39,122 nt of DNA from a virus (taxonomy: Duplodnaviria > Heunggongvirae > Uroviricota > Caudoviricetes). The stretch lies in the IMG/VR virus record IMGVR_UViG_2869924733_000008, one strand, 5' to 3'. The position numbers and the translations under genes were made by a program. Below the pieces are notes generated by a model, which worked only from the letters and a program-made list of their open reading frames with translations, was not told where the DNA came from and ran no database searches. Positions 12,646 to 39,122 of this stretch are shown here, piece by piece (the first letter of the stretch is position 1; the number at the start of each line of letters is the position of its first letter).

Positions 12646-12890
12646 AGTTCAATATGTTGTGTAAACAGACAGTTACTATAGCTCAGATGATTAAGGGACA
12701 CAGCCTAGATCTGGTTGCTGCTCAGCTAAACAACAGACCGAGAAAGACACTGAAGTTCAAAACACCGAAAGAGATAATTGAAAGGGGTGTTGCATTGACA
12801 GATTGAATCTACAACAGCGTATTTTGCACAGGAGTCGCTGAAAAATACGCGTTAATCGAACAATGGCGACAACAATTTCCCATTGAAGCG

Positions 12891-13709: not shown

Positions 13710-13752
13710 AAAAAGAACAAATGGTAGTGTCCGCTATTGCCAGTACACCTCA

Positions 13753-15940: not shown

Positions 15941-16521
15941 TTTTTGCCCCCGTCTACAGAATAATCAACGCTGTCCATCATATGTCCGGTTTCAATAAGC
16001 GGGTTGTTAAAACCCTTTTGCCGGGCAGTGGATGCAGCGTTGGGCGGACTTTCCCAGTCGCGAACAGACATCTGCAACTGCCCTTTGATATGTTCTCCCA
16101 TACACACCAGAGCGGTCGCAGTATCAAAATCATTCGCCCGTAATAAGGTCGCCATTTTTTCGCCCCATTCGGGACTTTTATGTTCGATCATCTTACGGAA
16201 GAACGGACGGGGGGGAATGGTGACCGTGTGCTCAGGAATAACCACATCCTGAACAAAATTCCCTTTACCGGCTTTGACAAAGCGGTGCCCGGTTTCTCCC
16301 GTTTTTTCGTTATAGCGAAAGTGGAGCGTCTGCTCACGGGCGGGTATGACCGCTCTTCCACCAAACTCCTGAACTGCGGCAATATAAGCCACTGACGTAC
16401 CGTCAGGGTAAGTTGCTCCCTCAAGAAAACCCACTTTGAGTTTTTTACCCAATGAAAGGTTCGCGGCAACCTGTTTCAGCTTCTGCCGGAACTGTTTGCC
16501 ACCTGTGACTTTATTTACCAT
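15937..16521 (-). CDS. Head-tail connector protein (HK97 gp10-like, tentative)
   Basis: Probable start is the internal ATG at 16521 ([11 protein letters not shown]...); the longer ORF to 16791 would overlap the upstream gene. Family call is from weak recalled similarity. Confidence 0.4.
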
Positions 16522-16969
16522 CGACGCCCCTCCCGTATCCCCGGTAATAATGCCCCGGATATCGCGAAGGTGACCCCCCGGAATGATACTGCATTGAGCG
16601 GTATGGCGCTGTCGCCTGCCAGTAGTCAGCACCCCAGGGGGTCTGGAGATACCACCACGACGCATCATTACTGCCGCTATTATCCACCGATACCGATACA
16701 GAACCTTCCGACGCACTGGTGATACGCCCCACCAGACCAGCCTGCCCGTCTCTCCCGTTTCCCAGCCCCCGCAATGCGCACAGATGCGCAACCAGCAGGA
16801 ACAGAAGCTGTTCCCGCTCCTTCAGGTCGGTAACCGGACTGTCGTCCGTGTTATCCTGGTACAACGCGGTCGCCTGGTTAAACACCGCCGTCAGTAGCTC
16901 CGGTGTCACCGTGGAAAACTCCGGGTACAGACTGACAAACATCCGACAGTCAAACATCACCGTACCCAT
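16511..16969 (-). CDS. Head completion/connector protein (DUF4054-like)
   Basis: 152-aa ORF in the conserved slot after the capsid gene; N-terminal ..[14 protein letters not shown].. pattern (recall). Confidence 0.4.
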
Positions 16970-16974
16970 AGCGT

Positions 16975-17322
16975 TTACTCCTGAGGTTTACCCATCACTT
17001 CATCATTGCGGTTAACGCCCGGAGCCGGATTTTTCTGCGGCAGCGGTTCAAGGCCGGATTTAACGGCTTTCTGCTCCGTAGCCTGCGAGACTGCACTGTT
17101 CGCCTTATCCTGCGCAAAAATAACGCCATTTTTCACATAAGGTTGCTGTCCGTGCTCCGCCAGCCAGGCGTCAAAAAACACCTTATCGACCTGCGTCAGA
17201 CCATAGCCCCCCACAATTTTAACCGCGTTATTCCGCCAGCCTGTCACCTGAACCCGTTTCTGCCCCACTTCCAGCACCAGACCGTTCGGCAGTTTACAGC
17301 CCACTGTTACCATTTCAGCCAT
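16975..17322 (-). CDS. Small phage head-associated protein, function unknown
   Basis: 115-aa ORF between the capsid and connector genes. Confidence 0.35.
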
Positions 17323-17325
17323 AAC

Positions 17326-18354
17326 TCACACCCCAAGCATTTGTGCATACGCCAGCGGCTGGCGAATAATCGCCCCCCAGGTACCAGCGGATTTTTTCTG
17401 TTTCCAGGAAGACGTATCTACCCCTACCGCATGGGCGCGCATTTTTTCAGTGAAAGCGCAATAGCCTGTATCCTGTTCACCCAGACGCTCCGCGATAAGC
17501 TGTACCAGCTCGCCAGCGTCAGAGGTGTATTCCACCGCCGTTTCAATGGTCATCGCCGGGAAATTTTTCGCCAGCAGATCGGACACGTTAACCCTGTACT
17601 GGTTTGTTTTGGTGAGGTTCACCTCTGCCAGCGGCGACATGCACAGTTTCATTTTGTCGGTACGCTCAATATGACCGTTAGTCTGTTTCACCAGTTGCTT
17701 AAAGAGTTTCACGATATCGTCATACACGCCCTGTCCGTCCTTGTCGTCCCACTTCAGTTTACCGTCAACGGTATCCGGGGTGATTGGTGCAGATAACGAC
17801 GGATCATTCAGCAAACCGTAGTTCGTCAGTCCGGCAATACCGTAGAAATAGGACTTATTCTGGAACTTATTCAGCGTCAGTGCTGACGCCACGTTCAGCT
17901 CTGCCGCCCAGCCAATACGGGCTGCGCCGTACATCTCCAGCTCACGTTCGCCCCATACGGTGAAGGTCTGGAAGTGATAGCTCTGGCGCGGTACCCAGTT
18001 GACGTTTGCGCTTACCACCCCGTTGTTGCTGTAATCCCCGTAGGAACTCACCTCCCCGTCAGATTCTGCAATCGGGAATTGTGCCGACAGTGTCGTCCAG
18101 TCACCTTTTTTGGTTTCGCCCAGAATCTGAGCGGCTTTCATCGGCGTCACCAGCACGCGGATCAGTTCTGGCTCAACGTAATTGGTGAAATACGCAGGGA
18201 TACCGCTGTTAGCCGCTGTGACCAGCGCAGGCTGCGCGTCCATCGCCAGTCCGTAATCGGCGGCGTACTCCTTCGGCAAATAAGCCTGTGCTCCGGGAAG
18301 AATAATCCCGTAGTCGCGACTTGCCGTCGCATAATGCTGTTTAAATTTATTCAT
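17326..18354 (-). CDS. Major capsid protein (putative)
   Basis: 342-aa ORF in the canonical position downstream of the portal/scaffold genes; size and composition fit a major capsid protein. Confidence 0.5.
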
Positions 18355-18836
18355 TATTTGCTCCAGGTACTGATCTTAATGACTTCTTTTGCCGCCGCAG
18401 CGCTGGCAACGGAAAACCAGGTTTCGACAAACCCCGCCATCGAGGTGCCAGCCGCCCCCGTGGCTATCTCCCCGGTGGCCAGTGAGGCAAATACTTTCTG
18501 CCCGATCGTCGCAGTAGTGGTGGTCAGCGCCCAGAAATCCCCCGACACCATCAGGGTGCATTCACGCCCCGGATAAATGGTGTTCGAGTCCCCGGCCAGC
18601 CATTCCACAATGGAAGCCTGCCCGTCACGAGGAACAAAACCCGCCGGTGCGCCGGCCCCCTTATTAGCGGCAACACCTTTGGTTACCCAGGCAAACCGGG
18701 CAATTACCAGCCCGTCAGGGCCGGTAATCAGCCCGCCATCTCCCGCCACATACGAGGCATGAGGGTTAGCACTGGCAAACGCCCCCGGAATACCCGGTGC
18801 CGGGTACTGGTTCATGTGTGTCTGAAAAGTATTCAT
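18354..18836 (-). CDS. Head structural/decoration-type protein (putative)
   Basis: 160 aa, Gly/Ala-rich, directly upstream of the capsid gene with a 1-nt overlap. Confidence 0.35.
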
Positions 18837-18837
18837 A

Positions 18838-20198
18838 TCAGTAACCTCGTTTCAGTTTTGCACCGGGGAAATCTGCCGCAAACGTCGATGCGCTGGCCTG
18901 ATCCATCGCCACACGGGGAGAGGATTTGGCCGTCTGCTTCTGCTCAACGGCAAACTTCACCATGCTGCGGTACGCACCGGGGTGAATACCCTGAATATCG
19001 ATCCCCGTCTGTTCCAGCGCGGTACGGTAAACATCTTCGGCGCAGTCCATCGCCACCACATCGCCACCACATCGCCAATCAGCGGTCGCACTTCAGCTTC
19101 AGCCACACGGACGGCGCGGAAATTTTCAGCAGCCCGTTTCGTTGCCTGGTCAGTTGCCAGCCTGATTGCTGCATCCATCGCAGGTTTATCGACTTTCACA
19201 TCGTCGGGTTTCACATCAGCCTCTTTTGTTTCGGGGGCTTCGTCGGTTGTCGGAGACAGTGCGGATTTAATTTTTTCCAGCACATCATCAGGAACTTTGC
19301 CGGACAGCAACGCCAGTACACTTTCCATCGGGCTGTCGGTATCAAATGCCTTCGACTCGTCAGTTAACCCGGTATCATCATCCCCGACCAGCTCCGGTAC
19401 GGCTTCTGCTGATTCCATCAGTTGCGCCAGCTCCACCGGTTCAATATCCATATCCTGTGCCAGCCGTTCGCTGTAAGCAGTTTTTACCGCGCTGGCGATA
19501 GCTGCCGGACGCTTATACTGCGCCATCAGGCGTAACAAATCCCCGGGAGCCGCATCCTGCGCCAGACGCGGCGCAAGATAGGTTCCCAGCGCGGTAAGCA
19601 CCGCCACTTCTTTTTTACTCAGTTTCATGCGTTTTAGCTCCTGAGGGAGAGAGTCCATAACAAGACAGTCCGACCCTACCCGGCCATCGCCGACCAGGGC
19701 CACATGATTTCCCACGATATTCCGCATAACGCCGTCATACGGCTCACCGTCGGGGGTGGTTCCCGGCGTCATATCTGCCACATAGGCATATGACGATGAG
19801 ATTTCCCGTTGTTCATCCGTTTCTATCCCCGCGATGGCGGAGTTGTCCCAGATGGACATGCCGTTAACCAGATAGGTACCGTCAAACTCGCTGTTGGCAT
19901 GAGTCGTCCCCACCCGGTACTCGCGCGCGGGCGCGCCCGGATAATCGGGTTTGTGTCGGCACAGGACGGGAATATTGTTGAAGGTTGAAACTGCCTTGCG
20001 CAGTTCATCGGGGTCACGGTAAAGCTGATAAAGTTTTTTGGGGTCGAGTCCCAGCGCTTCCGCCCCCGGTATTTCATACCCGAAATAACCGCAGACGTTC
20101 GCCTTGCTGAGATTACTGCGCTCAATCTGGAGGCGACCGACTTTATCGAACTGCCTTACCGATGCCCGGTCAAACGCCAGCATTTCGGTAATAATCAT
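18838..20198 (-). pseudogene. Head scaffold/protease-like gene, frameshifted by an 11-bp tandem duplication
   Basis: Removing one copy of the duplicated 11-mer at 19051-19072 joins ..PLIGDVVAM to [13 protein letters not shown]... (ORF 18838-19059) in frame. Probable start is the ATG at 20198 ([10 protein letters not shown]..). Confidence 0.6.
19051..19072. repeat. Perfect 11-bp tandem duplication (CGCCACCACAT x2 on the plus strand) inside a head gene
   Basis: Read directly from the sequence; causes a frame change in the minus-strand gene. Confidence 0.9.
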
Positions 20199-20966
20199 TT
20201 TTTCTCCAGTCCGGGAATAACGGCCTCCCAGCCACACCGGCAGTTGATTTCTTCGCCCGGCAGTACCCACTTACCATCCAGAAACATCCCCTTTCGCAGG
20301 TCAAACCGTTTACCGTTCGCCTTCACATGCGACGGACGCCATGTTTTACCCGCGCGGGAATGCCTCCAGACACCTTCAGTGATACCCACCGAACGCTGTC
20401 TGGCGGCCTGCATTACCGACGTTGCCTTATTGTTCTGGTCGCGGGCAATCAGCACCGCGCGCCGTCGTGTGATGCCGTAACGTTTTTCCAGTTCATCGGT
20501 CAGCGTTTTCAGGTCACGTCCCCGGCCAACAGACTGCATGACCAGTGTTTCCACCTGGGGGAGATGTTGCTGCGGGATGGAGCGAATGAGGTTCACATTC
20601 TCCGTGATGCTGGCCTGAAGTGCGGTATTCATCTCCGTTGTCATACGGAAAGGAACCGTAAACCCGGCATCACGGAGCGCAGTGTACAGTGACGCATCGC
20701 TGTTTTTCAGGACATCACCGGCAAACCGCCTCGCCAGCCGCAGGGCCATTTCGTCAAAATTTTTCTGCCAGCGCCGGGCAAGTTGCTGCATGGCACCACG
20801 CATCAGGTTAACGGGGGACGCATCCTGCGCGAGGTCTGTTTTACGGTACTCAGCCCGCAGCCAGTAAAGTACACTGTTGTGCATCCCACTGACGGCATTA
20901 TCCAGTTGTCTGCGGTACCAGGCCTCAATCCCCGCGTTGGGTGAAATCCGCCTCAGGGTCTGCATT
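20195..20966 (-). CDS. Head morphogenesis protein (Mu F / SPP1 gp7-like)
   Basis: Sits between the portal and scaffold-like genes; C-terminal ..[10 protein letters not shown].. fits the Mu-F-like family. Start is ambiguous: Met at 21016, 20966 or 20881. Confidence 0.55.
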
Positions 20967-22475
20967 CGGGCCTTGCGGCGGATTTTCTTCGGTGTTGTCA
21001 ATTTCAGTGTCGTCAATTTCGATGTCCCCGCTCAGGTCAATACCGCTGTACGGGCTGTCCTGCGCAGTCGCCAGCCGTTCGCGTACTTCGTTATTGGTCA
21101 CTGCTCCGGTGCTCTCATAAATCTGATCCGTTTCCGCCTCAGTTTTACGGATATTCGCCAGTTGCTCGCGCGTCAGCTCATGCAGGGGTTCAAATTCAAA
21201 CGTGATATCAGGATCGATATCGCCGAACTCAGACAACTGGATAATATCCAGCACCTTTTTCAGCGGTTTCTTCAGAAGACGGGTGGCAAGTGCAGCAATG
21301 GTGTCGTAAAACCCCCGGATTTCACCCTCACTCGACGCATTCAGTCCCGTTGGGCTCAGCCCGGCGAATTTTACGGACGGTATGGCACTGACAAAGAACA
21401 TGTGTTCCTGTACCTGCGCCTGAAGGGTGTCGAGGCCGCTCAGGGGAGTGTTGAACTGGAAAAACTCTTCGTTCGTCTTGTCCAGCATCAGCAGCCCGCG
21501 GTTATCACGGGTACGGTTAAACAACTCCGCGCGTTTTGCGTAATTCGGGTCCCTTTTACCACTTAATACCTGTGTCATATCCGTCTTAATCCCGCTCAGC
21601 GAAAACGAATGCAGCATATCGCCCACGCTGTCGCGTGTTCGCAGCCAGTTATCAACATAAGGCTCAGCAATCTGAACCAGTGACAGGCCGCCAAAGTTGT
21701 AGGCCGGCTTCAGCATGTCCGGAACCGGACGGGAGATCAGATCAATCATGCGGCTGGCGTGAACCGTTTTTCCCATTACGTACCATTCGGACGGACGGTA
21801 AAAATCATCACTCAGCGGATTATCCGCGTTATATATACCCGGATACGTCCAGACGGGTTCAATAACACGAAGCCCCAGCAGGGAACCTTTCGGGATTTTT
21901 TTGTCGGAAATAAACAGTCCGGATCCCAGCTCCGCCGGGTCAGTCCAGGCAGATATACCCGATGGCGAACGCACATCAATATAAATCTGCCCTCGCCCGA
22001 AAAAGCCGTCGTGCTCAATCGCCAGTCTGAAAACGTCCTGTACGTTATAGTGCTCCAGTGCGTCAGTAAGCTGCGCTATGCGTGACGCGTGGCTGTCGTC
22101 CCCTTCTCCGACCGCCTTAACCTTTATCCACTTACGGGTCATCTCCTCGGCAAGCACACTGACCATACGCCGGTACTCCGGTAACTGCGCCTGAAGTGCC
22201 AGATACGGATAGCCCGGGAAACCACCATAAACAAAATCAGGATAATGACTGTTCAGGGTGTCATACGGTGTTGCATCCATTGCCAGCACAGCATCGCGAA
22301 CCGGTGCCGGGATAACGCCCGGTGGTGGCTCATAGCGAACAAACTCCCTCCGTGGTTTCTGCCGGACGGAAGCGATCACCTCATCGTTAATTTCCGGTGG
22401 CTGTGGTTCAGGTTGTTTGTCCGGTACCGCCGGCGCTGACGGTTCTTTTCGTTTAAACGGCCACATCAGATCCAC
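20925..22475 (-). CDS. Portal protein (putative)
   Basis: 516-aa ORF immediately downstream of the terminase large subunit gene, with an acidic C-terminus. Confidence 0.6.
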
Positions 22476-23754
22476 TCCATAAAGTCATCAGAAATTACGA
22501 TGGGCATTTCCATCGGGGCATAAGCAATCATCACAGAATCAGCCAGGTTTGGAGATTTCGTTCCGTCAGGTTGCTTATCCACAAGAATTTTTCCGGTGGC
22601 ATTTTTTGACCAGGTAGGTTGTGACAGCTCCATCAACAGCCGGTCTTTATTTTCCATTGTGCTGCTGATGGAAATAATCTCATCCGGGTCATACTCCATA
22701 CCCTGTAGTGCACGAAATGTATTGCGGAATAATTTGCGAAGATGCCACCACCCCTGGGCTTTGGCATTGACAAAAAAGTCCTTATTCAGACGAGCCGGTT
22801 TACCATTATCACCGGGAACAGCTTCATTTTCAGGATGAAACACGCTCCCGCTGCCCCGGAATGGAGTGGCGGTGATTTGACAGATGCCCTCCGCTTCACG
22901 CAGTTCGTTGATAGCGCGCGCATCACCACGAACGCCAGCACCCAATCCGTCCTCATCAAAGCGAAACTCATCGGCACCAAAGTCATCGCACAGACCAAAA
23001 ACCTTAACCACAGAGTCATAGATGTCACTCCCCTTACCTGACCACTCCTGTACGTCATTCAGCAGGATGCCATAACGGAGCGAACAGGCGTTTTTATCCC
23101 GCCCTTCGTCGGCGACATCCATTGCACCAAGCCGTTGGCCGCCGGGCTGAATGCCCAGTCTGATATGTGCATCAACCGCAGCCTGTACCCATTCTGAGGG
23201 GATCAGGATGCCTTCTGCTGATGCCTGGTAATTAAGATCCAGTTCCTGGGCAACGATGACTGGGTTATCAATTTTCTCGCACTCCTTGTGATACCACTCA
23301 TCGTCTTTACGCGGATCGCTACGCCAGTGAAACGTAAACACCGGGATTTTTCCACTGTGCCGCTTCTGTGCGAAGGGGTTGTTCATGCCGTTAACCGATG
23401 AGAGATCGATACGACGTCGGGTTGTCTGAGAAAGCGCGGCATCAATAAGTAATGGTCGCTGGAGAAAAGCAGCCTCATCCACAAAATAAAGGGTCGTACG
23501 GTCACCACGACCGATATTATCGCCAGCCTCACCTTTGATAACCGCGCCAGTTTCAGGAAACTCAACACGCATATATGGCGCATGCTTCTTCTCGCTCCAC
23601 GAACCGCGAAACTCTACAGGTAGTGTTTCCACGAACTTGCACGCCTTCCAGAACAATGCTTTCGGGTCACCGGTGCTGTCGACGTATTCCTCTTTACGGG
23701 AGCCGAAACCGATAACCATTTCTTTGTTGAAGAGACAAAGCGAGCAGGCCAGAG
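22466..23754 (-). pseudogene. Terminase large subunit gene, 5'-truncated by IS600
   Basis: Walker-B-like [11 protein letters not shown] is present but no Walker A lies upstream; the frame runs straight into the IS600 end at 23755 (the apparent Met at 23770 is IS sequence). Confidence 0.65.
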
Positions 23755-24283
23755 TGAGGTGTACTGGCAATAGCGGACACTACCATTTGTTCTTTTTTTA
23801 AGCAGCCATCTGATGATATTTTTCCCTGAAGGCTGCCGGGGAGATATTCCCCAGACGAGAGTGACGACGCTGACGATTGTAGAAAATCTCAATGTATTCC
23901 CGTATTACTGAGATGGCTTCATCCCGGTTATTAAAACGATAGTGGCTCAGGCTCTCATTTTTCAGCGTTCCCCAGAAGCTTTCCATCGGAGCGTTGTCGT
24001 AACTGTTACCTTTACGCGACATTGATGTTTTCAGACCAAACTGCTCCTGTATGACCCGGTAATCGTATGCGCAGTACTGTGAACCTCGATCAGAGTGGTG
24101 GATTAGCCCGGCAGGTGGGCGCTGGCTCCTGAGCGCCATAAACAGGGCTTTACCTGTCAGCTCTTTTGTCATGCGCTCTCCCATGGCGTAGCTAGACTGG
24201 CCCCCTGAATCTCCAGACAACCAGTATCACTTAAATAAGTGATAGTCTTAATACTAGTTTTTAGACTAGTCATTGGAGTACAG

Positions 24284-24649
24284 ATGATTGATGTCTTAGG
24301 GCCGGAGAAACGCAGACGGCGTACCACACAGGAAAAGATCGCAATTGTTCAGCAGAGCTTTGAACCGGGGATGACGGTCTCCCTCGTTGCCCGGCAACAT
24401 GGTGTAGCAGCCAGCCAGTTATTTCTCTGGCGTAAGCAATACCAGGAAGGAAGTCTTACTGCTGTGGCCGCCGGAGAACAGGTTGTTCCTGCCTCTGAAC
24501 TTGCTGCCGCCATGAAGCAGATTAAAGAACTCCAGCGCCTGCTCGGCAAGAAAACGATGGAAAATGAACTCCTCAAAGAAGCCGTTGAATATGGACGGGC
24601 AAAAAAGTGGATAGCGCACGCGCCCTTATTGCCCGGGGATGGGGAGTAA
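24284..24649 (+). CDS. insC: IS2 InsC (orfA, 121 aa)
   Basis: [47 protein letters not shown]... matches recalled IS2 InsC. Confidence 0.9.
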
Positions 24650-25512
24650 GCTTAGTCAGCCGTTGTCTCCGGGTGTCGCGTGCGCAGTTGCACGTCATTC
24701 TCAGACGAACCGATGACTGGATGGATGGCCGCCGCAGTCGTCACACTGATGATACGGATGTGCTTCTCCGTATACACCATGTTATCGGAGAGCTGCCCAC
24801 GTATGGTTATCGTCGGGTATGGGCGCTGCTTCGCAGACAGGCAGAACTTGATGGTATGCCTGCGATCAATGCCAAACGTGTTTACCGGATCATGCGCCAG
24901 AATGCGCTGTTGCTTGAGCGAAAACCTGCTGTACCGCCATCGAAACGGGCACATACAGGCAGAGTGGCCGTGAAAGAAAGCAATCAGCGATGGTGCTCTG
25001 ACGGGTTCGAGTTCTGCTGTGATAACGGAGAGAGACTGCGTGTCACGTTCGCGCTGGACTGCTGTGATCGTGAGGCACTGCACTGGGCGGTGACTACCGG
25101 CGGCTTCAACAGTGAAACAGTACAGGACGTCATGCTGGGAGCGGTGGAACGCCGCTTCGGCAACGATCTTCCGTCGTCTCCAGTGGAGTGGCTGACGGAT
25201 AATGGTTCATGCTACCGGGCTAATGAAACACGCCAGTTCGCCCGGATGTTGGGACTTGAACCGAAGAACACGGCGGTGCGGAGTCCGGAGAGTAACGGAA
25301 TAGCAGAGAGCTTCGTGAAAACGATAAAGCGTGACTACATCAGTATCATGCCCAAACCAGACGGGTTAACGGCAGCAAAGAACCTTGCAGAGGCGTTCGA
25401 GCATTATAACGAATGGCATCCGCATAGTGCGCTGGGTTATCGCTCGCCACGGGAATATCTGCGGCAGCGGGCTTGTAATGGGTTAAGTGATAACAGATGT
25501 CTGGAAATATAG
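24607..25512 (+). CDS. insD: IS2 InsD (orfB, 301 aa)
   Basis: [41 protein letters not shown]... matches recalled IS2 InsD. Confidence 0.9.
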
Positions 25513-26029
25513 GGGCAAATCCAGTAGCCGACAATTTCGCACGTATAAACATCTTTGATGCCAGCGAAGTACAACCATCCCTCCTGTGTGGCAACATACG
25601 TCAGGTCCGCCACCCAGACCTGATTTGGTGCTGTAGGAGCGAACGTCTGGTTCAGCAGATTTGGCGCAACTGGCAGATTGTGGTTCGGGTTCGTAGTCGC
25701 TCTGAACTTGCGTTTCTGCTTACAGCGTAGCCTTAGCTCCTTACGAAGACGTGCCAGTCGGTCACGACCAACGATGATGCCATTCTCTGCCAGCTCCGTC
25801 TGGAGCCGCCGGGTTCCATATGTTTCGCGAGTGCGGATATGTGCCACCTTAATCTCCAGTTTTAGCCGCTCATCACTTTGTTTTCTGTCTGAGGGTTCAT
25901 GCTGTACCCAGTTGTAATAACCGCTCCTGGATACACCAAATACCTGACACATCGCTTCAATGGGAAATTGTTGTCGCCATTGTTCGATTAACGCGTATTT
26001 TTCAGCGACTCCTGTGCAAAATACGCTGT

Positions 26030-27250
26030 TGTAGATTCAATCTGTCAATGCAACACCCCTTTCAATTATCTCTTTCGGTGTTTTGAACTTCAGTGTCTTT
26101 CTCGGTCTGTTGTTTAGCTGAGCAGCAACCAGATCTAGTTCATGTTGAGTATATTGGGCAAGACATGTCTTTTTAGGAAAGTACTGCCGAATTAGCCCAT
26201 TTGTGTTCTCATTTGTTCCCCGCTGCCAAGGACTCTGAGGATCGCAGAAGTAAACTTTAACGCCGGTGCTGACAGTAAATTCTAGATGTCTGGCCAGTTC
26301 CATTCCTCTGTCCCATGTCAGTGATTTTCTGAGTTCTGACGGTAAACTCAGGAATTTGTCGGTAAGAGCCTGATTTACTGAGACAGAATCTTTGCCCCTG
26401 AGTCTAAGGATGATCGTATAACGTGATTTTCGGTCTACAAGTGTGGCTATATGAGAGTTTTTTGTACCTGAGACTAAATCGCCCTCCCAATGCCCCAGAG
26501 AGCGTCTGTTATCGATATTTCGGGAACGTTCGTGAATTGGTGTTCCGTTCACTATGTTAATCGTACCTCTTTCGCCTTTGCGGGTATGACGCCTGCCATG
26601 GCGAAGGCTATGCGACCGTCGCAGATGCTGTATATTCAGGTGGTGTAGCGCTTCACGGCTACGAAAGTACAGCGTTTTATAAATTGTCTCAGGTGATATT
26701 CGCAGCGTTTTTTGACGTGGTTTTGTTCGCCTTAACCATCCTGATATTTGCTCTGGAGACCATTTCATCTCCAGCTTTTCCAGAACAAGCTTTCGCAATG
26801 GTAAATTTTGATCCAGTAAGCACGGTTTTGGCCTTTTCGCCATTCTGTTGGCTCGGTTATTAGCATCAACAGCTTTGTAATAGCGTCTGCCCCGATTACG
26901 CTGAACTTCACGTGAGATCGTCGAAGGACTGCGATTCAGCGCAGTAGCTATCGCACGAATGCTCATTTTGGCTGACAAACCAGCTCGTATCTCCTCGCGC
27001 TCAGACAGTGTCAGGTGAGCTACAGCCCGCTTACGCTCATGGGGTTTTATGCCGCCAGTATCCCTTAACATAGTGAAGATCGTTCCGGGTTTTGAACCCA
27101 GGATATTCGCTATTTCACTGAAGCCTGTTCCGTTCTTCCATAGTTCAAAAACAGAGGCTTTTTCCTCTGCTGTAAATGTTCGTCTCATTCAAAAAACCTC
27201 CGCAACCCCATGTTTTCACATAACTGTTGCGTTGACCAATTGAATCTACA
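26030..27250 (-). mobile_element. IS30 (1221 bp) inside IS600 copy 2
   Basis: IS30 terminal repeats at both ends; 2-bp duplication (GT on the plus strand) at 26028-29 and 27251-52. Confidence 0.9.
26037..27188 (-). CDS. insI: IS30 transposase (383 aa)
   Basis: [38 protein letters not shown]... full length, identical to the other intact copies. Confidence 0.95.
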   Translation of the reverse strand: MRRTFTAEEKASVFELWKNGTGFSEIANILGSKPGTIFTMLRDTGGIKPHERKRAVAHLTLSEREEIRAGLSAKMSIRAIATALNRSPSTISREVQRNRGRRYYKAVDANNRANRMAKRPKPCLLDQNLPLRKLVLEKLEMKWSPEQISGWLRRTKPRQKTLRISPETIYKTLYFRSREALHHLNIQHLRRSHSLRHGRRHTRKGERGTINIVNGTPIHERSRNIDNRRSLGHWEGDLVSGTKNSHIATLVDRKSRYTIILRLRGKDSVSVNQALTDKFLSLPSELRKSLTWDRGMELARHLEFTVSTGVKVYFCDPQSPWQRGTNENTNGLIRQYFPKKTCLAQYTQHELDLVAAQLNNRPRKTLKFKTPKEIIERGVALTD

Positions 27251-27952
27251 GTTGCTTTTTTTAATATATCTCGCTCAAGGCGAGCTTCATTTAACGCCTT
27301 ACGCAGTTGCAGAATTTCAGATTCCAGTTCAGCCACCGTGCGGGAACCAGGAGTACCGAGCCCTTTTCTGGCGGCGGTAACCCATTGTCCTAAAGTGCCT
27401 TCAGGAAGGGATAATCGGGAAGCGCCTTCACTGATCGAAAATTGATTTTCAAGAACCGTTCTGACAGCTTCGGCTTTGAACTCTTTAGAGTAACGTTGGG
27501 TTTTTCTGCTCATTATTAGCTCCTTCTGATGCCATTCTATTTCAGGAAGGAGTGTCCGTTAAACTCAGGCTACCTCAGGTCTTCCGACGATTCTGTCATT
27601 GTTCATTAAGCAAAAGTTTCCATGCTGTTTGTGCTTATTCTAAGCAACCGGGCAGCATCATACGGGGCAATTATGGCCGCATTACCATACATGCAACTGT
27701 ACATAGCTAATTACCTGGCTGACACCATGCATTTGTCAGCAGAGGAGCACGGCGCGTATTTGTTGCTGATGTTCAATTACTGGCAAACAGGAAAGCCAAT
27801 ACCCAAAAACAGGTTGGCAAAAATTGCCCGTCTGACTAACGAGCGATGGGTTGATGTTGAACCATCCTTGCGGGAGTTTTTTTGTGATAACGGCGACGAA
27901 TGGATGCATCTTCGGATTGAGGAAGATCTGGCATCTGTCAGTGGATTTGCCC

Positions 27953-28858
27953 CTATATTTCCAGACATCTGTTATCACTTAACCCATTACAAGCCCGCTG
28001 CCGCAGATATTCCCGTGGCGAGCGATAACCCAGCGCACTATGCGGATGCCATTCGTTATAATGCTCGAACGCCTCTGCAAGGTTCTTTGCTGCCGTTAAC
28101 CCGTCTGGTTTGGGCATGATACTGATGTAGTCACGCTTTATCGTTTTCACGAAGCTCTCTGCTATTCCGTTACTCTCCGGACTCCGCACCGCCGTGTTCT
28201 TCGGTTCAAGTCCCAACATCCGGGCGAACTGGCGTGTTTCATTAGCCCGGTAGCATGAACCATTATCCGTCAGCCACTCCACTGGAGACGACGGAAGATC
28301 GTTGCCGAAGCGGCGTTCCACCGCTCCCAGCATGACGTCCTGTACTGTTTCACTGTTGAAGCCGCCGGTAGTCACCGCCCAGTGCAGTGCCTCACGATCA
28401 CAGCAGTCCAGCGCGAACGTGACACGCAGTCTCTCTCCGTTATCACAGCAGAACTCGAACCCGTCAGAGCACCATCGCTGATTGCTTTCTTTCACGGCCA
28501 CTCTGCCTGTATGTGCCCGTTTCGATGGCGGTACAGCAGGTTTTCGCTCAAGCAACAGCGCATTCTGGCGCATGATCCGGTAAACACGTTTGGCATTAAT
28601 CGCAGGCATACCATCAAGTTCTGCCTGTCTGCGAAGCAGCGCCCATACCCGACGATAACCATACGTGGGCAGCTCTCCGATAACATGGTGTATACGGAGA
28701 AGCACATCCGTATCATCAGTGTGACGACTGCGGCGGCCATCCATCCAGTCATCGGTTCGTCTGAGAATGACGTGCAACTGCGCACGCGACACCCGGAGAC
28801 AACGGCTGACTAAGCTTACTCCCCATCCCCGGGCAATAAGGGCGCGTGCGCTATCCAC
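27953..28858 (-). CDS. insD: IS2 InsD (orfB, 301 aa)
   Basis: Same protein as 24607-25512, apart from one substitution. Confidence 0.9.
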
Positions 28859-29181
28859 TTTTTTGCCCGTCCATATTCAACGGCTTCTTTGAGGAGTTCA
28901 TTTTCCATCGTTTTCTTGCCGAGCAGGCGCTGGAGTTCTTTAATCTGCTTCATGGCGGCAGTAAGTTCAGAGGCAGGAACAACCTGTTCTCCGGCGGCCA
29001 CAGCAGTAAGACTTCCTTCCTGGTATTGCTTACGCCAGAGAAATAACTGGCTGGCTGCTACACCATGTTGCCGGGCAACGAGGGAGACCGTCATCCCCGG
29101 TTCAAAGCTCTGCTGAACAATTGCGATCTTTTCCTGTGTGGTACGCCGTCTGCGTTTCTCCGGCCCTAAGACATCAATCAT
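28816..29181 (-). CDS. insC: IS2 InsC (orfA, 121 aa), cut off from the IS2 left end by IS630
   Basis: [13 protein letters not shown]...; the longer ORF to 29238 is read-through from the IS630 end. Confidence 0.85.
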
Positions 29182-29198
29182 CTGTACTCCAATGACTA

Positions 29199-30351
29199 AA
29201 TAGCTGCGCTTAATACCGCTACACTTTTGCCAGTCCATGTTTGCCTCCGGGGAATGGGCTGACGGTTTCCATAAAATGGCGAACTTTTTTCAACAGTTGC
29301 CACATTGAGCGGCACTGATGATTACGCGTTATTGTGTCGTGAAGTGCCTGCCATAGCCGTTCAACATGATTCACCCATGGCGAGTAAACCGGCTGATAAA
29401 TGACCCTGAACTTCGGGTTCTCCTTCAGCCAGCTCTGTGTTTCCCGGCTTTTGTGGATAATGTAGTTGTCCACGATCAGCGTGATGGTTTTCGCCCGACG
29501 GTATGTCGCTTTAAGCCGCTTCAGCAGGCTGATGAACAGCGCCGAACTTTTGCTGTTGCCGCCCACATAGCTGACTTTACCTGTCCCGCTGTGCAGCGCT
29601 CCGGCCAGATAATATTTTTCATTCTGTCCCGGCGTGACCACCCGTTTTTGCTGTCCGCGCAGTTGCCAGTCCGCACCGATTTTGGGATAAAGATGGATAT
29701 CCACTTCATCTTCATAAAAGACCGGATGCTCTGCGCTGCATTCGTCCAGTGCTTTATGGATTGCTGCCATCTTTTCATCTTTATGCGGGTCACGGATACG
29801 CAGAGTTGGCGCAGCCCTTCGCCACACAATCCCCGCAGACGGCAACCAGCGGCGAACGGTTCCGGCATTTAACTGGCAACCGGTTATCTCATTGATTTTT
29901 ATTGCCAGCAGTTCTGTACTCCAGCGTGAACGCTGGTAGACAAAGTCGCCGGGAGAATGTTTTACCAGCTCACGTAACAGTGTGCAGATATGCTCAAACG
30001 GCCAGCGACGGGCACGCCCGGCAGGTAATGATTTCAGTCCCTCAACACCCGACTGCGTGAACCAGTTAATCCAGCGTCCAACAGAGGAACGGGCGCAGCA
30101 GAGCGTTCTGGCAACGTCGCTGACACGGTCGCCCCGGTGCAGCATCAGCATGGCAGTCAGTCTGCGGGCATAATTTTTATCGTGTGTTTTATGGATGGCT
30201 TTCTGCATCAGGCGTCGTTCGTCACGGGAAATTGGTGCTATGATCGGCATTGCTCAGTCCGGTTGGTGATTTGTTTTGATTTGGCGATTGATCAGATCGC
30301 ACAATCCGGGCTAAGTTCCCTCAAAGTGATCTACTATTCCGCGCAGCTATT
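29199..30351 (-). mobile_element. IS630 (1153 bp) inserted in the IS2 left-end region
   Basis: Terminal repeats AATAGCTGCGC.../...GCGCAGCTATT; TA duplication inside the IS2 sequence ..AGACTAGTC.. (CTAG target). Confidence 0.85.
29219..30250 (-). CDS. IS630 transposase (Tc1/mariner superfamily, 343 aa)
   Basis: [31 protein letters not shown]... matches recalled IS630 transposase; size is exact. Confidence 0.85.
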
Positions 30352-30536
30352 TAGTCTAAAAACTAGTATTAAGACTATCACTTATTTAAGTGATACTGGT
30401 TGTCTGGAGATTCAGGGGGCCAGTCTAGTCAGAGAAAAATTAACCAAAAAATCAGCCGCAGGAAAAGCATCTGTTCAGGCCAGAAGAAGCAGAAAGGAAG
30501 CAGATGTTCAAACAAAACAAGAGAGAAATTTAACAG

Positions 30537-31289
30537 GTGTTCGAACATGATGCCAACACAAAGGCAACTAATAAAGATACAGATAAAGCTCTAAAAACAG
30601 ATCTAACCCATCCCAAACCCTTCCCTTCCGGAAGGGAGTTTCGGGATTTTGTGGCTGGAGTGCTTGAGGGGAGATTATCTGGCGGTACTGCAGCGGAATT
30701 TTGTAATTCTGCGGTGGTTGCGTTGCAGGCTGCTGGCCTGGATGTCTGTCGTGAGTATCCGGTGCCAGAGCGTGGTGACGGTTGCGGAGGGCGGATTGAT
30801 ATCGTCGTGACTGACAGGAACGGTGTCCGGTGTGGGATCGAGCTTGACCGAAATTCTCCGCGACAGAAATCACTGCTCAAAATCGGTGCTGTTGAAACCG
30901 GGATATGTGTCTTGCGGCGCAGTGATATCGCAAGGCACACCGAGCAGGGAATTCTGGTTATCGGTGGGGCTGTTCGCCAGAAAAAATTTGACCCGTTGTC
31001 AGTTGATCTGCCCGACTGGTTGCCAGAAACACTCTGGCATGAGTGGGTCCAGTTCAGGCAGGCATTGCGAAAACCGATTCGAACGGAGCAGGGCGCTAAC
31101 GGGGCGATACGGGAACTGGAAAAATTCCGTCAGCAGGGTTTTACACCTGAGCAGGTGATTCGACACAGCATCGCCAATGAATACCATGGTCTGTTCGCGC
31201 CGAAAGGTGTTCGGCCTGAGACGTTGCTCCGACAGGTTAACACCGTCTCGTTGCCGGACAGTGCGATCCCGCCAGGCTTCAGGGGGTAA
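30537..31289 (+). CDS. Phage replication protein with DnaT-like C-terminal domain
   Basis: C-terminus ..VNTVSLPDSAIPPGFRG parallels the recalled E. coli DnaT C-terminus (..NTVSEPDSQIPPGFRG). Apparent GTG start overlaps the stop of the upstream DUF1376 ORF; the two may be one frameshifted gene or two genes. Confidence 0.5.
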   Translation: MFEHDANTKATNKDTDKALKTDLTHPKPFPSGREFRDFVAGVLEGRLSGGTAAEFCNSAVVALQAAGLDVCREYPVPERGDGCGGRIDIVVTDRNGVRCGIELDRNSPRQKSLLKIGAVETGICVLRRSDIARHTEQGILVIGGAVRQKKFDPLSVDLPDWLPETLWHEWVQFRQALRKPIRTEQGANGAIRELEKFRQQGFTPEQVIRHSIANEYHGLFAPKGVRPETLLRQVNTVSLPDSAIPPGFRG

Positions 31290-31295
31290 CAGACC

Positions 31296-32042
31296 ATGAA
31301 AAATATTGCGACAGGAGGCGTTCTGGAGCGTATCCGCAGACTGACCCCACCACATGTAACCGCCCCATTCAGAACGGTTGCGGAGTGGCGCGAGTGGCAA
31401 CTTGCTGAAGGCCAGAAACGTTGCGAGGAGATCAACCGCCTGAATCGTCAGTTGCGGGTGGAAAAAATCCTGAACCGCTCCGGCATCCAGCCGTTGCACC
31501 GGAAGTGTTCGTTTGCGAATTACCGGGCGCAGAACGACGGTCAGCGACATGCACTGAGTCAGGCGAAATCCATAGCTGACGAACTGATGACAGGCTGTAC
31601 GAATTTTGTGTTCAGCGGTAAGCCCGGCACCGGAAAAAATCATCTTGCAGCCGCGATTGGCAACCGGCTGATGGCGAAGGGGCGTAGCGTGATTATCGTC
31701 ACCGTGTCCGATGTCATGAGCGTGTTGCATGAGAGCTACGACAACGGCAAATCCGGTGAAAAATTTTTACAGGAGCTTTGTGGTGTTGACCTGCTGGTCC
31801 TGGATGAAATTGGCATGCAGCGGGATACGAAAAACGAGCAGGTGGTACTGAACCAGATTGTTGATCGCCGGACGGCATCGTTACGCGGTGTGGGGATGCT
31901 GACAAATATTAACCATGCAGCGATGAATACACTTCTCGGCGAGCGGGTGATGGATCGCATGGTCATGAACGGCGGGCGCTGGGTGAATTTTAACTGGGAG
32001 AGCTGGCGTCCGAATGTTAGCCATTCGAGGGTTGTTAAGTAG
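31296..32042 (+). CDS. DnaC-like helicase loader (IstB-type AAA+ ATPase)
   Basis: Walker A GKPGTGKNHLAAAIG and Walker B LLVLDEIG; 248 aa; typical replication-module partner of the DnaT/YdaU-like gene. Confidence 0.85.
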   Translation: MKNIATGGVLERIRRLTPPHVTAPFRTVAEWREWQLAEGQKRCEEINRLNRQLRVEKILNRSGIQPLHRKCSFANYRAQNDGQRHALSQAKSIADELMTGCTNFVFSGKPGTGKNHLAAAIGNRLMAKGRSVIIVTVSDVMSVLHESYDNGKSGEKFLQELCGVDLLVLDEIGMQRDTKNEQVVLNQIVDRRTASLRGVGMLTNINHAAMNTLLGERVMDRMVMNGGRWVNFNWESWRPNVSHSRVVK

Positions 32043-32056
32043 TTTCAGGAGGATTT

Positions 32057-32158
32057 ATGGCGAAACCTTTTACTCCCGAACAGCGGGAAGAACTGAAGAC
32101 GCGAATTGTGGAACTCGTGCATCAGGACGGTCGGGTCACGATTCGGCAGTTGTCAGAT
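32057..32158 (+). pseudogene. Small phage gene truncated after 34 codons by the IS911 end
   Basis: MAKPFTPEQREELKTRIVELVHQDGRVTIRQLSD, then a TGA supplied by the first bases of the IS911 inverted repeat. Confidence 0.4.
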
Positions 32159-32166
32159 TGAAGTGG

Positions 32167-34295
<2,129 letters not shown>

Positions 34296-34527
34296 GTAGC
34301 CTTTTTTAATATTTCATTCTCCATTTCAATGCGTTGTAGCTTTTTCCTCAGCTTACGTATTTCGATTTGTTCTGGTGTTATCGGAGAGGCTTTTGGTGTT
34401 TTGCCCTGACGCTCATCACGCAGTTGTTTGACCCATCTTGTCATTGTGGAAAGGCCAACATCCATAGCTTTGGCGGCATCTGCCTGAGGTGTACTGGCAA
34501 TAGCGGACACTACCATTTGTTCTTTTT

Positions 34528-35346
34528 TTAAGCAGCCATCTGATGATATTTTTCCTTGAAGGCTGCCGGGGAGATATTCCCCAGACGAGAGTGACGACGC
34601 TGACGATTGTAGAAAATCTCAATGTATTCCCGTATTACTGAGATGGCTTCATCCCGGTTATTAAAACGATAGTGGCTCAGGCTCTCATTTTTCAGCGTTC
34701 CCCAGAAGCTTTCCATCGGAGCGTTGTCGTAACAGTTACCTTTACGCGACATTGATGTTTTCAGACCAAACTGCTCCTGTATGACCCGGTAATCGTATGC
34801 GCAGTACTGTGAACCTCGATCAGAGTGGTGGATTAGCCCGGCAGGTGGGCGCTGGCTCCTGAGCGCCATAAACAGGGCTTTACCTGTCAGCTCTTTTGTC
34901 ATGCGCTCTCCCATGGCGTAGCCGACAATTTCGCACGTATAAACATCTTTGATGCCAGCGAGGTACAACCATCCCTCCTGTGTGGCAACATACGTCAGGT
35001 CCGCCACCCAGACCTGATTTGGTGCTGTAGGAGCGAACGTCTGGTTCAGCAGATTTGGCGCAACTGGCAGATTGTGGTTCGGGTTCGTAGTCGCTCTGAA
35101 CTTGCGTTTCTGCTTACAGCGTAGCCTTAGCTCCTTACGAAGACGTGCCAGTCGGTCACGACCAACGATGATGCCATTCTCTGCCAGCTCCGTCTGGAGC
35201 CGCCGGGTTCCATATGTTTCGCGAGTGCGGATATGTGCCACCTTAATCTCCAGTTTTAGCCGCTCATCACTTTGTTTTCTGTCTGAGGGTTCATGCTGTA
35301 CCCAGTTGTAATAACCGCCCCTGGATACACCAAATACCTGACACAT
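34528..35346 (-). CDS. IS600 orfB (272 aa)
   Basis: Same protein as 12891-13709 with three substitutions (S10G, S/C, R/K). Confidence 0.8.
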
Positions 35347-35423
35347 CGCTTCAATGGGAAATTGTTGTCGCCATTGTTCGATTAACGCGTATTTTTCAGC
35401 GACTCCTGTGCAAAATACGCTGT

Positions 35424-36644
35424 TGTAGATTCAATTGGTCAACGCAACAGTTATGTGAAAACATGGGGTTGCGGAGGTTTTTTGAATGAGACGAACATTT
35501 ACAGCAGAGGAAAAAGCCTCTGTTTTTGAACTATGGAAGAACGGAACAGGCTTCAGTGAAATAGCGAATATCCTGGGTTCAAAACCCGGAACGATCTTCA
35601 CTATGTTAAGGGATACTGGCGGCATAAAACCCCATGAGCGTAAGCGGGCTGTAGCTCACCTGACACTGTCTGAGCGCGAGGAGATACGAGCTGGTTTGTC
35701 AGCCAAAATGAGCATTCGTGCGATAGCTACTGCGCTGAATCGCAGTCCTTCGACGATCTCACGTGAAGTTCAGCGTAATCGGGGCAGACGCTATTACAAA
35801 GCTGTTGATGCTAATAACCGAGCCAACAGAATGGCGAAAAGGCCAAAACCGTGCTTACTGGATCAAAATTTACCATTGCGAAAGCTTGTTCTGGAAAAGC
35901 TGGAGATGAAATGGTCTCCAGAGCAAATATCAGGATGGTTAAGGCGAACAAAACCACGTCAAAAAACGCTGCGAATATCACCTGAGACAATTTATAAAAC
36001 GCTGTACTTTCGTAGCCGTGAAGCGCTACACCACCTGAATATACAGCATCTGCGACGGTCGCATAGCCTTCGCCATGGCAGGCGTCATACCCGCAAAGGC
36101 GAAAGAGGTACGATTAACATAGTGAACGGAACACCAATTCACGAACGTTCCCGAAATATCGATAACAGACGCTCTCTGGGGCATTGGGAGGGCGATTTAG
36201 TCTCAGGTACAAAAAACTCTCATATAGCCACACTTGTAGACCGAAAATCACGTTATACGATCATCCTTAGACTCAGGGGCAAAGATTCTGTCTCAGTAAA
36301 TCAGGCTCTTACCGACAAATTCCTGAGTTTACCGTCAGAACTCAGAAAATCACTGACATGGGACAGAGGAATGGAACTGGCCAGACATCTAGAATTTACT
36401 GTCAGCACCGGCGTTAAAGTTTACTTCTGCGATCCTCAGAGTCCTTGGCAGCGGGGAACAAATGAGAACACAAATGGGCTAATTCGGCAGTACTTTCCTA
36501 AAAAGACATGTCTTGCCCAATATACTCAACATGAACTAGATCTGGTTGCTGCTCAGCTAAACAACAGACCGAGAAAGACACTGAAGTTCAAAACACCGAA
36601 AGAGATAATTGAAAGGGGTGTTGCATTGACAGATTGAATCTACA
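35424..36644 (+). mobile_element. IS30 (1221 bp) inside IS600 copy 3, opposite orientation to its host element
   Basis: IS30 terminal repeats; 2-bp duplication at 35422-23 and 36645-46. Confidence 0.9.
35486..36637 (+). CDS. insI: IS30 transposase (383 aa)
   Basis: Full-length, identical protein to the other intact copies. Confidence 0.95.
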   Translation: MRRTFTAEEKASVFELWKNGTGFSEIANILGSKPGTIFTMLRDTGGIKPHERKRAVAHLTLSEREEIRAGLSAKMSIRAIATALNRSPSTISREVQRNRGRRYYKAVDANNRANRMAKRPKPCLLDQNLPLRKLVLEKLEMKWSPEQISGWLRRTKPRQKTLRISPETIYKTLYFRSREALHHLNIQHLRRSHSLRHGRRHTRKGERGTINIVNGTPIHERSRNIDNRRSLGHWEGDLVSGTKNSHIATLVDRKSRYTIILRLRGKDSVSVNQALTDKFLSLPSELRKSLTWDRGMELARHLEFTVSTGVKVYFCDPQSPWQRGTNENTNGLIRQYFPKKTCLAQYTQHELDLVAAQLNNRPRKTLKFKTPKEIIERGVALTD

Positions 36645-37169
36645 GTTGCTTTTTTTAATATATCTCGCTCAAGGCGAGCTTCATTTAACGCCTTACGCAG
36701 TTGCAGAATTTCAGATTCCAGTTCAGCCACCGTGCGGGAACCAGGAGTACCGAGCCCTTTTCTGGCGGCGGTAACCCATTGTCCTAAAGTGCCTTCAGGA
36801 AGGGATAATCGGGAAGCGCCTTCACTGATCGAAAATTGATTTTCAAGAACCGTTCTGACAGCTTCGGCTTTGAACTCTTTAGAGTAACGTTGGGTTTTTC
36901 TGCTCATTATTAGCTCCTTCTGATGCCATTCTATTTCAGGAAGGAGTGTCCGTTAAACTCAGGCTACCTCAGCCACCGTGTATTTCTGGTCAACAACCAG
37001 TTGAGCGGATTCGCGTTTAAACTCTGCGCTAAAATTTCTTTTTTTCATTGGAGCACCTGTGTTGTTCTGAGGTGAGCATATCACCTCTGTTCAGGTGGCC
37101 AAATTCAGTGTGCCACTTCATATCTTAAACTACCGGAATGAACTGCTGCATGGAGAAACGCTTTACCTA

Positions 37170-38322
37170 AATAGCTGCGCGGAATAGTAGATCACTTTGA
37201 GGGAACTTAGCCCGGATTGTGCGATCTGATCAATCGCCAAATCAAAACAAATCACCAACCGGACTGAGCAATGCCGATCATAGCACCAATTTCCCGTGAC
37301 GAACGACGCCTGATGCAGAAAGCCATCCATAAAACACACGATAAAAATTATGCCCGCAGACTGACTGCCATGCTGATGCTGCACCGGGGCGACCGTGTCA
37401 GCGACGTTGCCAGAACGCTCTGCTGCGCCCGTTCCTCTGTTGGACGCTGGATTAACTGGTTCACGCAGTCGGGTGTTGAGGGACTGAAATCATTACCTGC
37501 CGGGCGTGCCCGTCGCTGGCCGTTTGAGCATATCTGCACACTGTTACGTGAGCTGGTAAAACATTCTCCCGGCGACTTTGTCTACCAGCGTTCACGCTGG
37601 AGTACAGAACTGCTGGCAATAAAAATCAATGAGATAACCGGTTGCCAGTTAAATGCCGGAACCGTTCGCCGCTGGTTGCCGTCTGCGGGGATTGTGTGGC
37701 GAAGGGCTGCGCCAACTCTGCGTATCCGTGACCCGCATAAAGATGAAAAGATGGCAGCAATCCATAAAGCACTGGACGAATGCAGCGCAGAGCATCCGGT
37801 CTTTTATGAAGATGAAGTGGATATCCATCTTCATCCCAAAATCGGTGCGGACTGGCAACTGCGCGGACAGCAAAAACGGGTGGTCACGCCGGGACAGAAT
37901 GAAAAATATTATCTGGCCGGAGCGCTGCACAGCGGGACAGGTAAAGTCAGCTATGTGGGCGGCAACAGCAAAAGTTCGGCGCTGTTCATCAGCCTGCTGA
38001 AGCGGCTTAAAGCGACATACCGTCGGGCGAAAACCATCACGCTGATCGTGGACAACTACATTATCCACAAAAGCCGGGAAACACAGAGCTGGCTGAAGGA
38101 GAACCCGAAGTTCAGGGTCATTTATCAGCCGGTTTACTCGCCATGGGTGAATCATGTTGAACGGCTATGGCAGGCACTTCACGACACAATAACGCGTAAT
38201 CATCAGTGCCGCTCAATGTGGCAACTGTTGAAAAAAGTTCGCCATTTTATGGAAACCGTCAGCCCATTCCCCGGAGGCAAACATGGACTGGCAAAAGTGT
38301 AGCGGTATTAAGCGCAGCTATT
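37170..38322 (+). mobile_element. IS630 (1153 bp) inserted in the integrase gene
   Basis: Same terminal repeats as the other copy; TA duplication (37168-69 and 38323-24) within ..ACCTAGAT.. (CTAG target). Confidence 0.85.
37271..38302 (+). CDS. IS630 transposase (343 aa)
   Basis: Identical to 29219-30250 except one residue (H/Y). Confidence 0.85.
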   Translation: MPIIAPISRDERRLMQKAIHKTHDKNYARRLTAMLMLHRGDRVSDVARTLCCARSSVGRWINWFTQSGVEGLKSLPAGRARRWPFEHICTLLRELVKHSPGDFVYQRSRWSTELLAIKINEITGCQLNAGTVRRWLPSAGIVWRRAAPTLRIRDPHKDEKMAAIHKALDECSAEHPVFYEDEVDIHLHPKIGADWQLRGQQKRVVTPGQNEKYYLAGALHSGTGKVSYVGGNSKSSALFISLLKRLKATYRRAKTITLIVDNYIIHKSRETQSWLKENPKFRVIYQPVYSPWVNHVERLWQALHDTITRNHQCRSMWQLLKKVRHFMETVSPFPGGKHGLAKV

Positions 38323-39122
38323 TAGATAATCCAAGATCCAACAAAAAAGGAAGAACCGTGCGCACAGTTGATAACTATATCGCCCTGCTCTGTTCGTTGT
38401 TACGTTTTGCGTATCAGTCGGGATTTATATCAACCAAACCATTTGAAGGAGTAAAAAAATTACAGCGAAACAGAATAAAGCCTGACCCGTTATCTAAAAC
38501 AGAATTCAATGCATTAATGGAAAGTGAAAAAGGACAGAGCCAAAACTTGTGGAAATTTGCCGTTTACTCCGGGCTTCGTCACGGGGAACTGGCAGCTCTG
38601 GCGTGGGAGGATGTGGATTTCGAGAAGGGAATTGTGAATGTCAGAAGAAACCTGACGATACTTGATATGTTCGGTCCCCCAAAAACAAATGCCGGGATCC
38701 GGACGGTAACATTACTGCAGCCGGCTCTTGAAGCACTGAAGGAGCAATACAAACTGACCGGGCATCATCGCAAAAGCGAAATCACTTTTTATCATCGGGA
38801 GTACGGCAGAACTGAAAAGCAAAAACTGCATTTTGTTTTCATGCCCAGGGTGTGTAACGAAAAACAGAAACCTTATTACTCGGTAAGCAGTTTGGGTGCA
38901 AGATGGAATGCAGCAGTAAAACGTGCTGGTATTCGCCGCCGTAATCCGTACCATACGCGACATACTTTTGCCTGCTGGCTGTTGACGGCAGGAGCGAACC
39001 CGGCATTTATAGCCAGCCAGATGGGGCATGAAACTGCGCAAATGGTGTATGAAATTTACGGTATGTGGATTGATGACATGAACGACGAACAGATAGCCAT
39101 GTTGAATGCGCGGTTATCGTAG

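Follow-up and report, generated by a model that had tools for sequence, protein, structure and literature searches.

A Rac-type integrase gene remnant, truncated at an IS911 boundary and interrupted by IS630, in an insertion-sequence-rich prophage

Introduction

Rac and Rac-like prophages integrate in ttcA, and their attL and attR match each other imperfectly, so that excision alters four N-terminal residues of TtcA; XisR (YdaQ) acts as their excisionase (Liu et al. 2015, PMC4632033). Prophages that have lost int or xis and are thereby immobilised, referred to as "grounded" or cryptic, have been reviewed (PMC6379469). Among the mobile elements met in this study, members of the IS630 family are stated to duplicate a TA target (PMC2170065), and the TA of CTAG is given as the preferred target of IS630 in the title of a paper cited there (Tenzen & Ohtsubo 1991).

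Here we analyzed a 39,122-nt stretch of Caudoviricetes DNA (IMG/VR record IMGVR_UViG_2869924733_000008), called the window below. What its last 2 kb retain of intR, the integrase gene of Rac-type prophages, is the 3' two-thirds. Compared with intact intR, the remnant is the same in nt 390-1236, in the distance of 51 nt to ttcA and in the position of attL within ttcA, but it differs in lacking the first 130 codons, in carrying IS630 at codon 146 and in the absence of xisR, which makes it a pseudogene. Like the grounded prophages (PMC6379469), the window is without integrase, excisionase and early region while its structural genes are kept; compared with grounded prophages generally, the loss here can be traced to specific IS events that are readable at base resolution. 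We read the locus as the integrase remnant of a Rac-type lambdoid prophage (in ttcA), inactivated by two separate mobile-element events, and put the probability of this reading at about 0.93.

Results

The 3' part of intR is retained without a mismatch

The intact intR of E. coli strains CFSAN029787 and cq9 is 1236 nt long and has 411 codons. Positions 38325-39122 of the window are identical at 798 of 798 nucleotides to genes annotated as intR ("tyrosine-type recombinase/integrase") in five complete E. coli genomes, and 95-99% identical to intR in about 2900 further E. coli genomes. When 37122-37169 and 38325-39122 are joined with one TA kept, the resulting 846 nt match nt 391-1236 of the CFSAN029787 gene exactly, with 0 mismatches, and the T at 37121 corresponds to nt 390, extending the match to nt 390-1236. 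As a comparison of sequences, an exact agreement over 846 nt is far beyond chance. The two retained pieces are:

37121..37169, + strand: nt 390-438 of the 1236 nt of intR, from the third base of codon 130 to the end of codon 146, exact match to CFSAN029787
38325..39122, + strand: intR fragment, nt 439-1236 (codons 147-411 plus the TAG stop), with the whole catalytic domain (Pfam Phage_integrase, E=1.3e-23)

The initial annotation had recognized an integrase gene here, with a frame that is continuous across IS630 once the TA duplication is collapsed and that runs to the last base of the window. The gene is intR, the 846 nt confirm the continuity, and the frame does reach the final base, with the refinement that 39120-39122 are TAG. 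This codon, which occupies the window's final three bases, is where the 411-codon gene naturally stops, and the 3' end of intR is therefore complete rather than cut by the window.

On the 5' side, nt 1-389 of intR are missing from the window; the gene is cut at the IS911 end, and IS630 lies 48 bases further in. On direct reading, the stretch 37121-37169 contains no ATG, GTG or TTG in frame with intR, in agreement with the earlier statement that no start codon follows the IS911 end. An upstream in-frame start might have been overlooked, as that annotation itself cautioned, and the sole one is a GTG at 37110, inside the IS911 end, which opens a 25-codon ORF that stops in IS630. Its other caveat, a naturally short recombinase, does not apply either, as full-length homologues have 411 aa. 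With codons 1-130 absent and the ORF broken at codon 146, a full integrase cannot be encoded, as had been proposed; no uninterrupted ORF with a start combines an arm-DNA-binding domain with a complete core-binding domain.

In the intact loci of CFSAN029787 and cq9, xisR precedes intR, and ttcA follows 51 nt after it, then dbpA, ynaL and zntB. Synteny with these loci is kept on the downstream side of the remnant, where ttcA and attL are present, and is lost upstream, where xisR is absent; identity over the retained part is 100%.

Both hits fall between the arm-binding and catalytic domains

Pfam matches in the intact 411-aa IntR are as follows:

Residues 5-69: Arm-DNA-bind_2, E=3e-26
Residues 82-139: Phage_int_SAM_3, E=3e-4, below the gathering score
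Residues 83-187: Phage_int_SAM_5, E=9e-3, below the gathering score
Residues 205-391: Phage_integrase (PF00589), catalytic, E=3e-23

Codon 130, where the IS911 boundary falls, and codon 146 (Leu146), which IS630 has entered, both lie between the arm-binding and catalytic domains. The position of this stretch and its two SAM-like matches, weak as they are, support its correspondence to the core-binding domain, where the initial annotation had placed IS630. The closest solved structure by sequence is the Tn1549 Int structure 6EMY (E=5e-8), with an alignment from residue 150 onward; a PDB sequence search with IntR residues 60-216 returned chance-level matches only, none of them significant. With codons 1-130 absent, the arm-binding domain and the first part of the core-binding region are lost, and the entire catalytic domain is kept, PF00589 being found in the reconstructed 281-aa remnant.

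IS630 entered a CTAG target in codon 146 and duplicated its TA

The first of the two elements and its target copies are:

37170..38322, + strand: IS630, 1153 bp, with the transposase ORF at 37271-38302, inserted at the TA of CTAG in intR codon Leu146
37168-37169: left copy of the TA target, within the intR fragment 37121..37169
38323..38324: right copy of the TA target; with one TA removed, the intR sequence is exactly restored

Inverted repeats at 37163-37186 and 38306-38329 delimit the element, with TA on either side. With one TA removed, the restored target reads ACC-TA-GAT, CTAG included, and the intR frame continues as ...ILNYRNELLHGETLYL|DNPRSNKKGRTV... (translation ...HGETLYL|DNPRSNKK...). 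The encoded protein matches NCBIfam transpos_IS630 (E=7e-76) and contains Pfam DDE_3 and HTH domains, and E. coli records label the same sequence "IS630-like element IS630 family transposase". A length of about 1.15 kb, terminal inverted repeats, a DDE_3 transposase and a TA duplication at CTAG are thus all present. Compared with IS630 of Shigella sonnei (IS630/Tc1/mariner family), the copy has the same length, repeats, single DDE_3 transposase and TA-in-CTAG target, with no notable difference. A second copy, inverted and 99.9% identical to 37170-38322, lies at about 29198-30350. IS630 would have entered the CTAG of codon 146 by its usual cut-and-paste route, duplicating the TA and parting the core-binding part from the catalytic domain.

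The IS911 boundary marks a rearrangement breakpoint

The element that abuts the 5' end of the remnant is a complete IS911 swollen by nested insertions:

32159..37120, - strand: IS911 (IS3 family), complete, with nested insertions; IRR starts at 32159 and IRL ends at 37120
33075-34295: IS30 nested in IS911
34485-36971: IS600 nested in IS911
35424-36644: IS30 nested inside that IS600
32057..32158, + strand: N-terminal 34 codons of a DUF977 gene, cut by the IS911 IRR (Pfam DUF977, E=3e-9, profile positions 1-32 of 134)

The pieces 32159-33074, 34296-34484 and 36969-37120 are colinear with, and 99.3-100% identical to, an intact annotated 1249-bp IS911; the first of them (916 bp) matches, at 99.9% identity, records that carry the annotation "IS3-like element IS911 family transposase". 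Terminal TGAAGTGG repeats are found at both ends, which read ...GTGTGCCACTTCA at 37120 and TGAAGTGGTCAAC... at 32159. The window copy thus shares terminal repeats and sequence with annotated IS911, but differs by three nested insertions and by the lack of a 3-bp duplication: its flanks are GAT (32156-32158) and TAT (37121-37123), whereas the intact 1249-bp IS911 used for comparison lies in a TCC/TCC duplication. The missing duplication counts against a simple insertion, not against the identity of the element.

The DUF977 flank shares 74% identity with its counterpart in the reference prophage and runs in the opposite direction. Upstream of it lie a 250-codon ORF and a DnaC-like loader gene, all on the + strand and inverted relative to the late genes and to the reference. 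Since the two flanks are unrelated, no target was duplicated and the far flank is an inverted DUF977 fragment, IS911 did not arrive at intR by simple insertion; since the flanks come from two different prophage genes and the duplication is lacking, the element marks a rearrangement breakpoint. The claim that the 5' end of the integrase gene was removed at the IS911 boundary therefore holds, as intR nt 1-389 are missing and IRL ends at 37120, in the refined form of a rearrangement.

When the reference sequence ahead of intR nt 390 (5952 nt) was compared with the window by BLAST, no match was found; the rearrangement thus took the 5' part of intR from the neighbourhood, along with xisR and the early region. 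Absent from the window are intR nt 1-389, xisR and the equivalent of positions 25698-47454 (about 21.8 kb) of the reference prophage.

The attachment site lies in ttcA beyond the window

In GenBank CP027027.1, which is 100% identical to window 28283-39122 (10,840 nt) and probably the source of the window, the window end is followed by a 51-nt spacer and then by ttcA, dbpA, ynaL, zntB, dgcM and smrA. In the reference, an imperfect 43-nt direct repeat (40/43) pairs ttcA codons 3-17 with a site between uspF and sitA, and marks attL and attR. The attL copy in CP027027.1 (positions 10899-10941 of that locus, L003) falls 59-101 nt past the window end, inside the 5' end of the protein-coding ttcA, a position that agrees with the published Rac integration. 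The attachment site is thus beyond the window, as had been expected. It lies in ttcA and not in a tRNA gene; as to any adjacent tRNA, ARAGORN found no tRNA gene in the 10 kb downstream in three loci.

An accidental hybrid ORF starts in the IS630 right end

Traced backwards from its stop at the window end, the frame is open as far as 38283, and before that lies in the element with the 343-codon transposase. This gives one further feature:

38283..39122, + strand: accidental hybrid ORF of 279 codons, 14 from the IS630 right end plus IntR residues 147-411

By direct reading of the sequence, its ATG at 38283 is preceded, 5 nt upstream, by GGAGG at 38273-38277. The ORF is called as a gene, with this exact sequence, in GenBank CP027027.1 and JAAOUC010000165.1. 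Since the start codon and Shine-Dalgarno (SD) sequence belong to every IS630 right end, we consider the fusion with intR accidental. As a separate observation, the IS630 right end (38273-38285) carries an outward-facing GGAGG-N5-ATG that overlaps the end of the transposase gene, and an in-frame, co-oriented IS630 insertion anywhere would yield a translatable fusion with the downstream part of the gene that was hit.

The prophage is colinear with that of CFSAN029787 and loaded with IS elements

Relative to the intact prophage of CFSAN029787 (locus L005), the window has three colinear stretches:

Window 1-9409: reference 3881-11674
Window 13751-23752: reference 15707-25698
Window 37120 to the end: reference 47454-48301

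Between the last two, 23752-37120 (13.4 kb) is almost all IS (IS2, IS30, IS600, IS630 and IS911) and replaces 21.8 kb of the reference, from the 5' end of the terminase gene through lysis, tRNAs, replication, immunity, recE and gam to xisR and intR nt 389. At 9409-13751, an IS cluster replaces about 4 kb of the reference (baseplate and tape-measure region); the two clusters together comprise IS66-family, IS600, IS30, IS2, IS630 and IS911 elements, and IS sequence makes up about 45% of the window. In the tail-fibre region, an IS110-family element at 3848-5302 is additional to the reference and encodes a 398-codon transposase (NCBIfam transpos_IS110, E=7e-71).

Four IS30 copies are present, at 10675-12813, 26030-27250, 33075-34295 and 35424-36644. 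Every one of them sits at a homologous site of an IS3-family element, directly 3' of an A6-7G slippery motif, and each has duplicated 2 bp (AC). The host element is IS600 for three copies (...TTAAAAAAAGCAAC|IS30|ACAGCG...) and IS911 for one (...TTAAAAAAGGCTAC|IS30|ACCGCG...). The shared position points to the frameshift region of IS3-family elements as a hot spot for IS30. The copy at 35424 is oriented, relative to IS600, opposite to the other two IS600-borne copies, and the one at 10675-12813 has in turn received an insert of about 914 bp (11791-12704) with a DUF4096 (IS4/IS5-type) ORF.

Inside the larger IS-rich region, 30537-32158 is a replication module on the + strand, with the 250-codon ORF, which has no family match, the DnaC-like helicase loader gene and the DUF977 N-terminus. 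The module runs against the direction of the late genes and shares only 74% identity with its reference equivalent, which has a DnaB-type helicase instead; either module mosaicism or a segment imported by IS recombination would account for it.

The start of the window corresponds exactly to the end of sitD in the reference, and related genomes (loci L005-L009) carry sitABCD beside attR and uspF at the far end. The grounded prophage probably fixes this iron/manganese uptake operon as cargo.

The junctions are rare among the genomes and metagenomes searched

The IS911-intR junction was seen in one assembly only, CP027027.1, which, as the probable source of the window, does not count as independent. 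A megablast search of 5426 complete E. coli genomes with 37021-37320 turned up no locus that covers both elements and the intR spacer. Exact-pattern scans gave 0 matches to the IS911-intR and IS630-intR junctions among GTDB species representatives, a set that probably holds no Shigella-type genome, and 0 matches to the IS911-intR junction among JGI metagenome contigs. Because the junctions were not found in these genome and metagenome scans, we consider the IS911 and IS630 events lineage-specific.

Discussion

Could the junctions be products of assembly, with IS copies collapsed or mis-joined in a repeat-rich region? Directly upstream of the remnant, 13 kb of nested, near-identical IS copies form the kind of region that is prone to misassembly, and the IS911-intR junction is missing from the species-representative genomes and the JGI metagenomes. 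Such an origin is nevertheless very unlikely, since IS630 is flanked by a textbook duplication of the TA in CTAG, the right junction of IS630 recurs in a second assembly (JAAOUC010000165.1, which starts inside the IS630 right end and runs on with identical sequence into intR and ttcA), IS911 abuts intR at the exact terminal base of the element, as repeat mis-joins do not produce, and CP027027.1 is a finished 5.04-Mb chromosome. Taking the junctions as real, one might still suppose that IS911 had merely split intR, leaving the 5' half on the other side of the element. The right flank, TAT, is nt 390-392 of intR, as expected if IS911 was originally inserted there; we nonetheless give this explanation practically no weight. 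Leftwards from 32158, the far flank is a DUF977 fragment and not intR, GAT and TAT are no duplication, and the upstream reference sequence has no BLAST match; the DUF977 flank, the GAT/TAT mismatch and the missing 5' sequence refute a plain insertion for the window.

A further alternative is that read-through from IS630 expresses the hybrid ORF as a truncated recombinase, catalytic-domain-only or dominant-negative. The ORF is intact, has GGAGG 5 nt before its ATG, lies on the same strand as the IS630 transposase gene and overlaps its end, and holds a complete PF00589 domain, so that, going by its reading frame, a catalytic-domain fragment could be made from it. In lambda Int, weak cleavage and topoisomerase activity persist in the catalytic domain on its own, which counts for this reading. 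Lambda-type integrases need their arm- and core-binding domains for intasome assembly and recombination, however, and the hybrid has no arm-binding domain and retains only about the second half of the core-binding region. Moreover, xisR is absent beside it, the start codon and SD are fixed in every IS630 right end, and the 100% nucleotide identity of the remnant with intact intR shows recency and carries no signal of selection on the fragment. We therefore regard an expressed, functional hybrid as highly improbable. Equally small is the chance that a ribosome-binding site and start supplied by IS630 would yield a catalytic-only fusion that interferes with incoming or resident Rac-type integrases, or that nicks att-like core sites.

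We return to the reading of an intR remnant inactivated by two separate events, an ordinary dead gene in a decaying, IS-riddled prophage. Since the remnant is 100% identical to the intact gene at the nucleotide level, the disruption is recent. For the IS911 side, the most likely route is recombination of two inverted IS911 copies followed by further IS-mediated deletion. IS911 would first have inserted in intR at a TAT target, and a second, inverted IS911 would have entered the DUF977 replication gene at a GAT target; recombination between the two copies may then have inverted the early region, most of which other IS elements would have deleted. We infer both the order and the exact mechanism of these steps. 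The 5' part of intR and xisR may either have been deleted or have been moved elsewhere in the chromosome by the inversion.

Judged by its gene content, the window locus can produce neither a full-length integrase nor the excisionase. Because both are lacking, the prophage remnant would be unable to excise by itself and would be fixed beside ttcA; an integrase provided in trans by another Rac-like prophage could in principle act on its att sites.

All components of this locus (intR, IS630, IS911 and IS-mediated prophage grounding) are well known, and the sequence is public. A disrupted intR is a known kind of event, biologically ordinary, and raises no question that is new to biology. The finding is chiefly of use in annotation: an intR pseudogene, interrupted by IS630 and truncated 5' at IS911, is the proper label here in place of a 279-aa "integrase", and the prophage should be entered as a non-excisable remnant at ttcA. 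As an example resolved to the base, the locus shows cleanly how prophages are grounded, and their cargo fixed, by the expansion of IS elements in Shigella/EIEC-like genomes.
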